Shown: piece after piece, positions 32,611 to 38,239 of the stretch
How positions within the stretch are numbered: the first letter of the stretch is position 1
Layout of the letters: each line of letters begins with the position of its first letter
From: Candidatus Sericytochromatia bacterium
GTDB lineage: Bacteria; Cyanobacteriota; Sericytochromatia; UBA7694
NCBI GenBank assembly: GCA_037968875.1
Contig: JBBKWI010000139.1
Coordinates: 884 to 64,883 of the forward strand
Length of the DNA stretch: 64,000 bases
Direction of reading: 5' to 3'
Made by a program: the position numbers and the translations under genes
Notes under the pieces: model-generated
What the model was told of the DNA's origin: nothing
What the model saw: the letters and a program-made list of their open reading frames with translations, nothing else
The model's database searches: none

Positions 32611-32764
32611 AATGGCCTCTCTATTTGGGGATGACATTTTAAAGGTATTTGAAAATTTAGTGACTGCTATTAAAGCAAAACATGCTTTACAGATCAATGA
32701 CAAGAAAAGCCCATGTTATGATTTGAGAGTTTCCGATAGGCTTGATTTCAGAAAGGATACAGCC

Positions 32765-33520
32765 ATGCTCCCCACCACGATAGCTTCTCAGCCCCCTGCT
32801 GTTCAACATGAGCTCATCTCGTTTAGCATGCTGCAGGCCTTCTGGTGCTGCCCCCGCCTCTATCACTATCGCTATCTTGAACGCTTACCAGGTCTCTCCA
32901 GCGACAGTCTTAGCAGCCAGGTTGGCAGGCGCATTCATGAACAATTGCATCATGATTTTTTGGGTCTAAAAACGCCCCTGAGCACAGAGCCTGAGCAGGC
33001 ACCGCTCTGGCAAAAGTACCAGGCGGCGATCGCGCCCTATCAAGCCTGGCAAGGTCGTAGCGAATGGAGCGGCCACTTGCCGTTTGCTGCAGGTGAGCAA
33101 ACGATCTGGCTGGTCGCTCAAATCGATCGGCTGTATTTTGACTCCGAGCGATTGCTGATCCTGGATTGGAAAACCGGTCAGTCGGGAAAGTCCAGGCAGT
33201 CCGGGCTGGCCCAATTGCAAATGCAGTTTTACGCCTGGCTGCTGTGGCAACACAAAGCGCACTTTGCCGACTCTATTCAGCAGATTGAAACCCAATTGCA
33301 TTATCTCAATGGCGATCTCAATAGTGAAGAACCAGTCATCAGCCAGTGCTACGACGCCAGCCGAATCGCTGACTTAGATACGCAGTTTAACGAACTGATT
33401 CAAAATTTTTTAGGCAGCTCACACCCGGAAGTGCCTGCGCCCCGTTCCGTGCAGGGGGATCTCTGGTGTAAGATGTGTGAATACAACCGACTCTGTCCTG
33501 AAGGAAGAAACCATGCTTGA
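32765..33520 (+). CDS. Cas4/RecB-like PD-(D/E)XK nuclease with Fe-S cluster cysteines (DUF83-like)
   Basis: One N-terminal Cys (FWCCPRLYHYRY), PD-(D/E)XK core ILDWKTG, three C-terminal Cys CKMCEYNRLC. Start ATG 32765 with SD AAAGGA. Confidence 0.65.
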   Translation: MLPTTIASQPPAVQHELISFSMLQAFWCCPRLYHYRYLERLPGLSSDSLSSQVGRRIHEQLHHDFLGLKTPLSTEPEQAPLWQKYQAAIAPYQAWQGRSEWSGHLPFAAGEQTIWLVAQIDRLYFDSERLLILDWKTGQSGKSRQSGLAQLQMQFYAWLLWQHKAHFADSIQQIETQLHYLNGDLNSEEPVISQCYDASRIADLDTQFNELIQNFLGSSHPEVPAPRSVQGDLWCKMCEYNRLCPEGRNHA

Positions 33521-34895
33521 TGATATGCAAAAACTAATCTCACTCTGCAAACGCCGGGGCCTGATTTTTCAGGGCTCTGAAATTTATGGCGGCCTTGCCA
33601 ATACCTGGGATTACGGCCCAATTGGGGTTGAGCTCAAAAAGAAAATTAAAGACCACTGGTGGAAGTCTTTTGTACAAGATCGCGAAGATATCCTCGGTCT
33701 CGATTCGTCGATTTTGCTAAACCCCAAAGTCTGGGAAGCTTCCGGTCACGTCGGTAATTTTGATGATTACCTGATGGACTGCCGCAAATGTAAATCACGC
33801 TTTCGTCCCGATAAAATGATCGAAGAACTGCTCTTTGCCAATGGCGAAAACGCTGATGAAGTCGGTGCCTGGCCCAAAGAGCAGCTTGAAAGTTTTATGC
33901 AAGAGCGCAGTGTTAAATGCCCGGACTGTGGCGCCCAGGATTTCACAGAAATGCGCCAGTTTAATATGATGTTTCAAACCAATCAGGGCGTGGTCGCTGA
34001 TTCGACAACTTCAATCTATTTGCGCCCCGAGACTGCCCAGGGCATTTTCATTAATTTCCGCAATATCATGAACACCCTGCGTCCGCGCCTGCCCTTTGGC
34101 GTCGGCCAGATCGGCAAATCCTTCCGTAATGAAATCACGCCCGGCAACTTTATATTCCGCACCCGTGAATTTGAACAAATGGAAATGGAATATTTTTGCC
34201 ACCCGGATGAGTCGATGGCGCATTACCAGAGCTGGCAGACATTCTGCTGGGAATGGCTGCTGTCACTGGGCATCAAAAAAGAAAACCTGCGCATGCGCGA
34301 ACACAGTGCCGAAGAATTGTCGCACTATTCCAAAGCCACTTCAGATATCGAGTATAAGTTCCCATTCGGTTGGGGCGAGCTCTGGGGCGTGGCCCATCGT
34401 GGTGATTTTGACTTGACCCAGCACCAGGAGCACTCGGGCACGGATCTGAGCTATCAGGATCCCCATACCCAGAAAAAACTGATTCCGCACGTGATCGAGC
34501 CGGCACTGGGCCTCGATCGCCTCTTGCTGACAATCTTAGTCGATGCTTACGACGAAGACGAAGTCAACGGTGAAACCCGCAGCGTCTTGCGTCTGCACCC
34601 GCGCATTGCGCCGATTCAGGTCGCTGTTTTGCCTCTGTCTAAAAAGCTCAATGATGATGCCCATAAGGTCTATAAACAACTTCAGAAGCAATTTGTCTGC
34701 GACTTTGACGTCACCCAGAGTATCGGCAAGCGCTACCGTCGTCAGGACGAAATAGGCACCCCCTGCTGCATTACTTTTGACTTTGATAGCTTAGAAGATC
34801 AGGCCGTCACGATCCGCGATCGCGATAGCATGCAGCAAGAGCGTGTCAAAATCGAGGATTTGCTGCCTTATCTCAACACCCGGTTGAACGTTTAA
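33513..34895 (+). CDS. glyQS: Glycine--tRNA ligase, alpha2 (dimeric) type
   Basis: Class II aaRS, eukaryote/archaeal-like GlyRS signature (LANTWDYGPIGVELKKKIKDHWWKSF, FRNEITPGNFIFRTREFEQMEMEYFC); SD GAAGGAAG before ATG 33513. Confidence 0.9.
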   Translation: MLDDMQKLISLCKRRGLIFQGSEIYGGLANTWDYGPIGVELKKKIKDHWWKSFVQDREDILGLDSSILLNPKVWEASGHVGNFDDYLMDCRKCKSRFRPDKMIEELLFANGENADEVGAWPKEQLESFMQERSVKCPDCGAQDFTEMRQFNMMFQTNQGVVADSTTSIYLRPETAQGIFINFRNIMNTLRPRLPFGVGQIGKSFRNEITPGNFIFRTREFEQMEMEYFCHPDESMAHYQSWQTFCWEWLLSLGIKKENLRMREHSAEELSHYSKATSDIEYKFPFGWGELWGVAHRGDFDLTQHQEHSGTDLSYQDPHTQKKLIPHVIEPALGLDRLLLTILVDAYDEDEVNGETRSVLRLHPRIAPIQVAVLPLSKKLNDDAHKVYKQLQKQFVCDFDVTQSIGKRYRRQDEIGTPCCITFDFDSLEDQAVTIRDRDSMQQERVKIEDLLPYLNTRLNV

Positions 34896-35331: not shown

Positions 35332-35682
35332 ATGAAAAAAATTATTTTAAGCAGCGGACTCTTTCTGGTTCTGCTAACCCTTAGCGCGTGCCCGGCACCC
35401 AATGCAGCCGATGGCAGTAGCAATGGCTCTACTGATGGCAGTACCTCTGGTAATGTCAATGTTGGTGTCGACGGCAATTTACAAGCCACCAGTCTGACCA
35501 AAGCCCAATATATTCAAATTTTGACCTGTGCCAAAGGCAAAAACCCAGCGGCAGCCGTCGCATTTGATGCACAAATCAATGCGATCAATTCTATCCCTGA
35601 GTCCAGCTGGGCAGTCATTGCCTCTCAGGCTCAGTTTCAGGCCAGCCTGAACCAGGCTGTCGCAGCTGCCTGCGGCGTCTAA
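35332..35682 (+). CDS. Small lipoprotein, paralogue of 36160..36486
   Basis: Lipobox LSAC, Gly/Ser linker, shared NVNV...AQ..Q.ITC..G.. pattern with the convergent neighbour. Confidence 0.6.
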   Translation: MKKIILSSGLFLVLLTLSACPAPNAADGSSNGSTDGSTSGNVNVGVDGNLQATSLTKAQYIQILTCAKGKNPAAAVAFDAQINAINSIPESSWAVIASQAQFQASLNQAVAAACGV

Positions 35683-35699
35683 ATCCGATTTTCAAGCAA

Positions 35700-35733
35700 G
35701 GGCCGTCAGTTACAAATACTGACGGCCCTTTTC
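35700..35733 (+). terminator. Rho-independent terminator
   Basis: GGGCCGTCAGT-tacaaat-ACTGACGGCCC followed by TTTT. Confidence 0.8.
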
Positions 35734-35959
35734 AGTTAGGCCTACTCAAAGCGATAGACTTCAGACTGGGTCTCGAAGGAGCCGTTGGCCGAATACACGC
35801 CACCGGTTAACAAATAAGTCTGTCCACCAGCCTCCACAAAGCTCCACTTGACCTTCCCCCGAAAAAGTGGACACCTGAGAATAAAGGATGACACTTAAAA
35901 AAAGAGTTACAATAGACTTTAGATATTAAGCTTTAACTCAGATTGCGATTCAGTTATAA

Positions 35960-36174
35960 TCTCATGAGAGGTGCTTTATTACGATTCAAGATAACAAATT
36001 GCTCTCTGAGTTTCATTCTCTTGCGGAAGAAGAGCAGAGCCAAGTTATTGATTTCATTGCATTTTTGAAAACAATAACACAAGTAAAAAATTAGAGAAGC
36101 AGCGTTCTTTTGGCGTTTTAAAAAGCGAAGTGTGGATCTCTGAAGATTTTAATAAGCCCTTAGAGGCACTCTAA
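35960..36174 (+). pseudogene. Frameshifted remnant of a DUF2281/VapB-like antitoxin gene
   Basis: Frame 2 encodes ...LSEFHSLAEEEQSQVIDFIAFLKTITQVKN then stop at 36092. Frame 1 continues ...KQRSFGVLKSEVWISEDFNKPLEAL stop at 36172. Together these match the DUF2281 antitoxin N- and C-terminal signatures. There is no in-frame ATG, and no toxin gene follows. Confidence 0.55.
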
Positions 36175-36486
36175 ACCATAATCCACTTGTGACGTCAGCA
36201 GGGTTTTAGCTGTGTTTTGCAAACGGGCTTTGGCGTCGGTTTCGGCATCGTCAGCTTCAAGCAAAACCTTGAGCGAAGCAGCCAGGGCGACCGCATCGGC
36301 GTTGTCGCTTTTCTCAAAGCAAGTGATCGCCTGTTGGACCTGCGCTTCGGTATATTGCTCGACATTGACATTCGCTGAACCGGATTCAAGGATCTCTTCG
36401 CGACTGTTGCCTGTTGAAGCTGTCGGGGAAGGGGTACAGGCAGCTAAGCTGAGTGCCAGTACAGAAATTAAGAATACGCTTTTCAT
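36160..36486 (-). CDS. Small lipoprotein, paralogue of 35332..35682
   Basis: Lipobox LAAC, NVNVEQYTEAQVQQAITC pattern. Confidence 0.6.
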   Translation of the reverse strand: MKSVFLISVLALSLAACTPSPTASTGNSREEILESGSANVNVEQYTEAQVQQAITCFEKSDNADAVALAASLKVLLEADDAETDAKARLQNTAKTLLTSQVDYGLECL

Positions 36487-36528
36487 TTGAGTCTCCTGTT
36501 GGGTCAGTTTTAATTCAGGGCTGAGAGC

Positions 36529-37422
36529 TTAGAGTCTTTTCGCTGTGCGCGGGTCAATCAAGTCACGCAGGCCATCACCCATCAGGTTAAAGGCCACCAC
36601 GACCATCGTGATCGCGATACCCGGGAAGAAGAGTGTCCAGGGCGCCGTGCGGATAAAGTCTTTGCCCTGAGAGAGCATCGTGCCCCATTCGGGAGTCGGC
36701 GGCTGTGCGCCCAGGCCCAAAAAGCTCAGGCCAGCGGTTTCTAAGATCGCCGCACCAATGCCCAGGGTCGCTTGTACGATCAAAGGCGAAAGGCAATTGG
36801 GTAGAATATGGTGAAAGATAATTCGGGTATGGCTGGCACCCATCGCATGGGCCGCTTCAATAAATTCATTATTGCGCACCTGCAACGAAGTCGAGCGCAA
36901 GAGTCGGGCATAAATTGGGATATTGACGATCCCGATCGCGATCATCGCATTAATCAGTCCTGGCCCTAAGATCGCGACAATTAAGATCGCCAGCAGAATG
37001 CTGGGGAAGGCCAATACGATGTCGATTCCGCGCATTAGGACTTCGCCAACGGTGCCCCCAAAATAACCGGCAATAACCCCGATTAAGGAACCAATAATCA
37101 GGGCGATGCCGACGGACAGCAAACCCACCATCAGAGATGTCTGCGCGCCATAAACAACACGGGCATAGATATCTCGACCTAAATCATCGGTACCAAACCA
37201 GTGCGTGGCCGAAGGAGTCATCAAGCGCTCCGAAAGGTTGTTTTCGATCGGACTATAATGGGTGAACAATTGCGGCACAATCGCTAACATTAAAAACATC
37301 AAAACGACGATGCCGCCAAATACAAAAGCCCGATTCCGCAGGACCCGGCGTCCAATTACCAGCAAAGAACCCTGTTCAGTGGGTGCTTGTAAACTTGAGG
37401 TCACCAGATCCTTGGTAATCAT
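36529..37422 (-). CDS. ABC transporter permease, DppC/OppC family (orphan)
   Basis: Six TM helices, EAA-like loop (EAAHAMGASHTRIIFHHILPN), DppC-type N-terminus; start at MITKDLV (37422), abutting the PNP stop. Confidence 0.75.
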   Translation of the reverse strand: MITKDLVTSSLQAPTEQGSLLVIGRRVLRNRAFVFGGIVVLMFLMLAIVPQLFTHYSPIENNLSERLMTPSATHWFGTDDLGRDIYARVVYGAQTSLMVGLLSVGIALIIGSLIGVIAGYFGGTVGEVLMRGIDIVLAFPSILLAILIVAILGPGLINAMIAIGIVNIPIYARLLRSTSLQVRNNEFIEAAHAMGASHTRIIFHHILPNCLSPLIVQATLGIGAAILETAGLSFLGLGAQPPTPEWGTMLSQGKDFIRTAPWTLFFPGIAITMVVVAFNLMGDGLRDLIDPRTAKRL

Positions 37423-37423
37423 T

Positions 37424-38239
37424 TTAGATTTGCTCCATGATGCCGCGCACCAGGCCTTTGAAAACCGTTGAGCTTTCGTTGACCACACGCAGAACGTCTT
37501 CGCCAGTGGCATGGACGCCACCATCAGGGATCGCCATATCTGAAATCAGGGCCAGACCGAGCACTTTCATGCCACGGTGTACAGCCAGAATCACTTCAGG
37601 CACTGTCGACATGCCAATCGAATCGGCACCCCACTGCATCAGCATACGCAATTCAGCCGGTGTAAAGAAAACCGGACCGGTAATGCCGCAGTGCACACCC
37701 TCATGAATTTTGAGGCTTTGAGAGAGGGCCACTTTGTGGGCCAGGTCGCGTAGCTCAGGGGTATAGGCGTCAAACATCACCGGGAAGCGAGGCCCTTGAT
37801 CTTCATCATTGGCTCCGACCAAAGGGTTGCTGCCTGTGAAATTGATATGATCACGGATGATCATAATATCGCCCGCTTTTTGATTATAGTTCAGGCCGCC
37901 GCTGGCGCAGGTCACGATCAGGGTGTGAGCACCCAGTTCTTGCATCACCGCTACAGGCAAAGTAACTTGCTGTTGGGTATAGCCTTCATAGGTATGAAAG
38001 CGACCTTGCATCATCACGACAGACTTGCCGGCTAATTTACCCAGTACCAAATTACCGGCATGGCCCGGAGCGGTTGCTTCGGGGAACTCAGGGATTTCAC
38101 TATAAGGAATAACGGTCGCGTCTTCGACTTCTTCAGCCAAAACGCCCAGGCCTGAACCGAGGATCATGGCATACTCAGGTTTAATCTGACTATGGGCGCG
38201 GATCGTATCCGCAATTTTTTTGATATCTGCTTGTTGCAT
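37424..38239 (-). CDS. Purine nucleoside phosphorylase (PNP/MTAP family, trimeric type)
   Basis: 271 aa; PNP family-2 motifs (ILGSGLG, VMMQGRFHTYEGY, TVPE). Confidence 0.8.
   Translation of the reverse strand: MQQADIKKIADTIRAHSQIKPEYAMILGSGLGVLAEEVEDATVIPYSEIPEFPEATAPGHAGNLVLGKLAGKSVVMMQGRFHTYEGYTQQQVTLPVAVMQELGAHTLIVTCASGGLNYNQKAGDIMIIRDHINFTGSNPLVGANDEDQGPRFPVMFDAYTPELRDLAHKVALSQSLKIHEGVHCGITGPVFFTPAELRMLMQWGADSIGMSTVPEVILAVHRGMKVLGLALISDMAIPDGGVHATGEDVLRVVNESSTVFKGLVRGIMEQI

Follow-up and report, generated by a model that had tools for sequence, protein, structure and literature searches.

Probable remnants of a DUF2281/VapB-type antitoxin gene and of an IS3-family element in the spacer between two convergent lipoprotein genes

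The spacer between two convergent lipoprotein genes in the window, the 64-kb stretch of DNA analyzed here, is very probably a graveyard of mobile DNA without a working gene, in which a DUF2281/VapB-type antitoxin pseudogene and the tip of an IS3-family insertion sequence (IS) lie at a junction of variable content. The window is 89% coding, with its longest genes reaching 918 aa. No tRNA genes were found in it, and an Rfam scan of the window returned nothing at the gathering threshold. The spacer between the two ORFs measures 477 bp, in agreement with the gap of about 480 bp noted in a preliminary description of this DNA, and the flanking genes are, as that description held, paralogues (30% identity, E 3e-9), both encoding a signal peptide that ends in a lipobox Cys. 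The features of the region are as follows.

35332-35682, plus strand: lipoprotein paralogue A, 116 aa, from the ORF list; left flank of the spacer.
35698-35730, plus strand: intrinsic terminator hairpin of paralogue A, a perfect 13-bp stem with a 7-nt loop, then TTTT.
35731-35848, no strand assigned: 118-bp stretch with a host-like G+C of 52%, holding the 3' two-thirds of the minus-strand ORF.
35742-35894, minus strand: chimeric 50-codon ORF with a GTG start; codons 1-17 come from the IS end, and codons 18-50 from the 118-bp stretch.
35849-35907, plus strand: apparent solo left end of an IS3-family IS, 59 nt, interior facing right.
35933-35960, plus strand: promoter-like site TTAACT-16-TATAAT, from a consensus scan (10/12 matches), upstream of the antitoxin relic.
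35965-35980, plus strand: Shine-Dalgarno sequence GAGAGGTG, then ATT (35978-35980) where homologues have ATG.
35978-36094, plus strand: N-terminal half of the putative DUF2281 pseudogene, 38 codons and then TAG, located by tblastn with P0005.
36085-36090, plus strand: A6 run, where a 1-nt deletion shifting the frame by -1 is placed most parsimoniously.
36085-36174, plus strand: C-terminal half of the putative DUF2281 pseudogene, in the -1 frame and truncated, located by tblastn with P0005.
36160-36486, minus strand: lipoprotein paralogue B, 108 aa, intact; right flank of the spacer; ends ...VDYGLECL as in its orthologues.

The terminator hairpin of paralogue A begins 15 nt past the paralogue A stop and has a folding energy of -24.7 kcal/mol (z -5.7); an equivalent hairpin, different in sequence, is present at the corresponding place in relatives. 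A sub-threshold Rfam match to Mu-gpT-DE (36484-36520, minus strand, 22.5 bits vs a gathering threshold of 49, E 0.029) falls within the 5' leader of paralogue B, outside the spacer, and is probably due to chance.

The plus-strand relic at 35978-36174 reads as a DUF2281/VapB-type antitoxin pseudogene. Frame 1 translates over 35969-36094 as RCFITIQDNKLLSEFHSLAEEEQSQVIDFIAFLKTITQVKN followed by a stop; when read from the ATT it gives ITIQDNKLLSEFHSLAEEEQSQVIDFIAFLKTITQVKN and ends at TAG 36092-36094, and the -1 frame carries ...KKLEKQRSFGVLKSEVWISEDFNKPLEAL up to a stop at 36172-36174. Addition of one A to the A6 run yields a single 65-codon ORF, the 65-aa product of which scores 31.4 bits against Pfam DUF2281 (PF10047), above the gathering score of 26.5. 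The unrepaired C-terminal half reaches 18.2 bits, below threshold, and the unrepaired N-terminal half has no Pfam match. When 1.84 billion representatives were searched with HMMER, 16 matches were obtained at E<=1e-3, all of them small DUF2281 proteins, the best being P0005 (E 4.5e-10). A word-indexed search of 5.8 billion proteins and a search of the plasmid collection returned no match for the repaired protein. In the reverse direction, tblastn with P0005 against the 64-kb window found both halves in two frames and nothing else (E 6e-10), with 48% identity over 29 aa in the N-terminal half and 73% over 22 aa in the C-terminal half, and all seven invariant columns of the family alignment are kept in the relic. 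We regard this tblastn reverse test as not circular and the DUF2281 match as far beyond chance. The DUF2281-type antitoxin in two frames claimed in the preliminary description is borne out by the repaired Pfam score and the tblastn result, and the likeness of the translated pieces to DUF2281 proteins, on which that claim turned, is found in Pfam and among the 16 HMMER matches alike.

DUF2281 antitoxins pair with PIN/VapC toxins in Synechocystis (ssl0385/sll0205 and ssr8013/slr8014; PMC4963859); a VapC/DUF2281 pair has been validated experimentally, and orphan DUF2281 genes have been reported (PMC12654330). The relic resembles the DUF2281 (PF10047, COG5559)/VapB antitoxins in domain and length class (65-70 aa) and shares with them the N-terminal L(P/A)xExQxEVxDFxxFLK and C-terminal FGxLKGxxxxSxDFDEPL motifs. 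Its layout of promoter, Shine-Dalgarno sequence and start is that of the nearest homologue, in which the next gene is a PIN toxin; the TATAAT-SD-start geometry is identical in the intact P0005 homologue gene (L086). The relic differs from DUF2281/VapB modules in its ATT start, its -1 frame, the lack of a DFxEYM tail and the lack of a toxin gene. It also differs in sequence, as its nearest relative is 51% identical and it stays below the equivalog cut-off of NCBIfam TA_VapB (NF050009; 49.7 bits vs 60 for the repaired product, E 3.9e-13).

Both P0005 and P0012 have a PIN gene directly downstream, and a third homologue, P0007, is not followed by one. In the window, the gene after the antitoxin relic is the convergent lipoprotein gene, not a PIN (VapC) toxin, and tblastn with P0005's partner PIN detected no PIN remnant anywhere in the 64 kb (best E 4.8), which upholds the earlier remark that no toxin gene follows.

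Three lesions distinguish the relic from an intact gene. First, an ATT occupies the position of the homologues' ATG at 35978, 7 nt past the Shine-Dalgarno sequence; the alignment places ITIQDNK of the relic opposite M-FQDKQ and M-IQNNQ of the homologues, and the relic has no in-frame ATG. Second, the frame changes by -1, and homology confines the shift to 36071-36091. Third, the C-terminal tail ...PLEDFxEYM is gone, and about four of the last family positions are absent: the Pfam DUF2281 profile is covered from 1 to 60 of its 64 positions in the relic and up to position 64 in intact homologues. The last 15 nt of the relic, TTAGAGGCACTCTAA, are the reverse complement of the final four codons plus the stop of paralogue B, whose orthologues, known from a few metagenome contigs only, keep that ending (...VDYGLxCL). 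Intact members score 63-67 bits in Pfam, roughly twice as much as the relic, which also has Ser in place of the almost invariant Gly in the LKG motif. The stop, the frame change and the missing in-frame ATG had all been described correctly from the letters. Taken as one part of a scar comprising the whole spacer, a reading in which we have high confidence, the antitoxin gene appears to be dead. Its decay would be recent or incomplete, because the promoter-like site and the ribosome-binding site are intact and the conserved residues mostly so.

Two repeats surround the start of the relic. An 11-nt direct repeat, ATT[G/A]CGATTCA, occurs at 35942-35952, in the promoter spacer, and at 35978-35988, at the start codon of the relic; an imperfect 16-nt inverted repeat pairs 35935-35950 with 35997-36012. 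These could represent a former operator or chance.

Retention of so many signals raises the alternative that an orphan antitoxin or small regulator is still alive here, either because the assembly shows A6 where the genome has A7 or because the ribosome or RNA polymerase slips by -1 on A_AAA_AAU before the UAG. Starting at ATT (35978) or TTG (35999), such a gene would produce a DUF2281 protein of about 60-65 aa. The sequence gtA AAA AAT TAG formally fits the slippery pattern X_XXY_YYZ, with the stop codon directly after it; the promoter-like site, a strong Shine-Dalgarno sequence and all invariant family residues are kept; and orphan DUF2281 genes do exist, as P0007 and those in PMC12654330 illustrate. 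However, all three independent lesions would have to be bypassed, no stimulatory structure follows the slippery site (z +0.5), and no internal Shine-Dalgarno sequence precedes it. Programmed frameshifting at A_AAA_AAT was judged unlikely because stimulators are lacking and the other lesions are present. The halved score, the Ser in the LKG motif, the absent DFxEYM motif, in whose place the ORF continues into the complementary strand of the gene next to it, and the absence of a cognate toxin from the window speak against a live antitoxin as well, and so does the want of homopolymer-error signs in the window. A systematic homopolymer artefact at A6 is unlikely, since 105 of the 126 homopolymer runs of at least 6 bases in the window lie inside long intact ORFs; the arrangement is known from one contig. 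Even a restored A7 would, to judge by the remaining lesions, leave no normal gene, with an ATT start, no DFxEYM tail and no PIN partner. We consider survival of the antitoxin, by either route, extremely improbable.

Another possibility is that the relic has been co-opted, the promoter at 35933-35960 firing toward the 108-aa lipoprotein gene so that antisense RNA or transcriptional interference tunes that gene. The promoter-like site does match the consensus at 10 of 12 positions, no terminator-like site stands between it and the convergent gene, and the 3' ends of the antitoxin relic's ORF and of paralogue B share 15 nt. This reading is purely positional, though, and promoter-like hexamers are to be expected in DNA of 34% G+C (4 found in the region vs 1.4 expected); we rate it very unlikely. 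As a joint proposition, that the relic is alive (by predicted promoter and ribosome-binding site, ATT start and -1 slip) or that its promoter has been exapted for an antisense transcript is given a very small chance; were it true, the organism would have domesticated a leftover of a toxin-antitoxin module for use as a small regulator. Residual low-level expression of the relic, or antisense transcription into the lipoprotein gene, may occur, and nothing supports either. The DNA of the spacer is most likely an extended 3' untranslated spacer only.

The second relic came to light in a metagenome scan with the peptide of the minus-strand ORF, which returned two contigs (L097 and L098) with the match limited to residues 3-17. 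At the nucleotide level, 35849-35907 is identical at 56 of 59 positions (95%, E 7e-21) to the orfA-proximal end of a complete IS in L097 and L098. The reference element (L097:804-2040) is 1,237 bp long, with 25-nt inverted repeats that start TGACC at 804-828 and 2016-2040, and its two genes, OrfA (HTH_Tnp_1) and OrfB (rve), overlap by 4 nt; OrfB scores 365.8 bits against the NCBIfam IS3 family transposase model (cut-off 160). The terminal inverted repeat of the relic, TGACCTTCCCCCGAAAAAGTGGACA (35849-35873), is identical in 25 of 25 positions to the IRL of the L097 element and, like it, starts 5'-TG; the 34 nt of leader past the repeat are about 91% identical. The relic extends to just short of the orfA ribosome-binding site and start, where similarity ends. 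It differs from the reference element in keeping 59 of 1,237 bp, with no transposase and no second inverted repeat. No transposase remnant was detected in the 64-kb window by tblastn (OrfA best E 0.59; OrfB no match), and no second inverted repeat was found there at <=3 mismatches. We interpret 35849-35907 as a solo IS3-family left end that has lost its transposase genes and its other end. The plasmid collection contained no close relative of the L097 IS, and viral contigs gave no match to the IS tip. In L097, the element adjoins an IS630-family transposase ORF (17-784).

The minus-strand ORF overlaps this IS end. Its peptide runs ...VYSANGSFETQSEVYRFE to the stop and ends ...EVYRFE, with a terminal Glu; codons 18-50 correspond to 35745-35848. 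The preliminary description had placed at about 35775..35880 a minus-strand stretch resembling the C-terminal strand of a beta-barrel outer-membrane protein (OMP). An open frame is indeed present, those coordinates being approximate, and the resemblance does not hold. The OMP C-terminal sorting signal consists of a terminal aromatic residue and alternating hydrophobic residues; the peptide ends in E, not F, and its first 17 codons are IS DNA. No match to it was found in Pfam, NCBIfam, PHROGs, PDB or the 5.8-billion-protein index, and no Shine-Dalgarno sequence lies upstream of the GTG. An OMP reading was rejected for want of a significant family match, as was a Kelch or PQQ-like beta-propeller fragment. 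From these searches, the 50-codon ORF appears to be no gene.

It could still be argued that about 35745-35848 on the minus strand represents the 3' part of a true gene, for an OMP or any other protein, that was cut by the IS insertion. Among the six frames this one has the best codon-usage score (0.08), the G+C is host-like, and the stop lies 11 nt short of the hairpin (35730-35698 on this strand), a sensible end for a gene; there is also a resemblance to beta-propeller repeat motifs, which is insignificant (E 1.2). Yet the score of 0.08 lies between those of coding windows (0.31+-0.15) and stop-free off-frame windows (-0.20+-0.23), 8.6% of the latter score equally high, and an open stretch of 33 codons can easily arise by chance. 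Furthermore, none of the libraries or collections searched yielded a homologue or family match, this position is free of genes in the closest relatives, and an OMP end is contradicted by the terminal Glu and by hydrophobic residues that do not alternate at -5 and -7. At the nucleotide level, 35731-35848 showed no similarity to relatives, the rest of the window, the L097 IS, plasmids or phages. We regard a cut gene as unlikely and leave these 118 bp unassigned.

Comparison with relatives bears on the origin of the spacer. An alignment search with the lipoprotein found no relative in GTDB representatives or JGI metagenomes, and exact look-ups of the lipoprotein and GlyRS of the window gave no record; metagenome contigs with related lipoproteins have the following junctions.

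Window: 477 bp, with both relics (antitoxin and IS end).
L001, L002 and L004 (lipoprotein 81% identical): convergent genes 61 bp apart, with one common hairpin.
L005 (lipoprotein 81% identical): about 185 bp of unrelated sequence.
L089-L092 (lipoprotein 74% identical): a 91-aa ORF matching positions 63-146 of the 146 of Lipocalin_2.

L001, L002 and L004 have the gene order of the window, namely GlyRS, glutaredoxin-like protein, lipoprotein A, lipoprotein B, permease and PNP, and paralogue A is syntenic in L001, L002 and L005. Neither relic is present at the junction of L001, L002, L004 or L005. The ORF in the more distant contigs (L089:475-750, also in L090-L092) is a 5'-truncated Blc-like lipocalin that overlaps the lipoprotein stop by 4 nt, so that a different lineage also has a decayed gene at this junction. 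DNA homology between the window and L001 and L005 ends at 35682-35685 and resumes at 36158-36176, leaving about 420 extra bases at the junction vs the close relatives. The G+C content falls to 29-37% across 35850-36150 vs about 50% for the window and the relatives, and the AT-rich block that carries the promoter-like site, the ribosome-binding site and most of the antitoxin coding sequence has 34% vs the same 50%. At the nucleotide level the spacer DNA resembles neither the spacers of relatives nor any other part of the window, and the plasmid and phage collections contained no match for it. Because homology to the flanks breaks off, G+C drops and relatives lack the DNA, we conclude that the extra junction DNA was acquired. 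No direct or inverted repeats flank it, and a MITE, or a unit bounded by a target duplication, was rejected on that ground. The junction varies between lineages, four lineages having four contents. The preliminary description had proposed remnants of a toxin-antitoxin module and of another gene at an insertion or recombination hotspot; decayed accessory DNA, the antitoxin relic and a site that varies among relatives are all recovered, and the OMP gene is not.

We propose that a VapBC-like module and an IS3-family element landed at, or recombined into, the convergent-terminator junction. One deletion, reaching as far as the lipoprotein stop codon, would then have removed the toxin gene along with the antitoxin 3' end; joint removal of the antitoxin tail and the toxin would avoid the lethality of antitoxin loss alone, and a candidate 6-nt microhomology, TTAGAG, possibly marks the antitoxin/lipoprotein joint. 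A further deletion, with one endpoint at nucleotide 60 of the IS and the other somewhere ahead of the antitoxin promoter, would have taken the remainder of the element. Left without its toxin, the antitoxin gene would subsequently have drifted, with ATG turning into ATT and a base dropping out of the A-run. We infer the order and number of these deletions from the present arrangement. Like other orphan or pseudogenised toxin-antitoxin components and IS scars between convergent genes, the spacer comprises AT-rich foreign DNA at a terminator junction, is absent from sister lineages, and decays by deletion and point mutation; it is typical in these respects, with nothing unusual, and is an ordinary new example of known genomic debris. 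As such it illustrates, cleanly and on a small scale, the arrival of IS elements and toxin-antitoxin cargo at convergent-terminator junctions and their piecemeal loss afterwards, and a single deletion of toxin gene plus antitoxin tail would be a plausible safe exit from addiction. For annotation, a DUF2281/VapB pseudogene and an IS3-family end remnant should be recorded, not genes, and no gene should be called for the 50-codon ORF on the minus strand.

The IS end connects a poorly sampled, flagellated lineage to IS in other metagenomes. The GlyRS of the window has <=61% identity to any relative returned by the scan, and its source lineage looks poorly sampled; FlhB is encoded in the window, which indicates that the organism is flagellated. 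Two further observations concern neighbouring ORFs. The 331-aa permease ORF (36529-37524, minus strand) overlaps the purine-nucleoside phosphorylase ORF (37424-38239, minus strand) by about 100 nt, and since its orthologues are called at 297 aa, the true start of the permease is probably internal. On the other side of the spacer, a PD-(D/E)XK, Cas4-like protein is encoded at 32612-33520 on the plus strand (NCBIfam cas4, 34.6 bits, below the cut-off), and this ORF ends within the mechanical start of the GlyRS ORF (33477-34895, plus strand).
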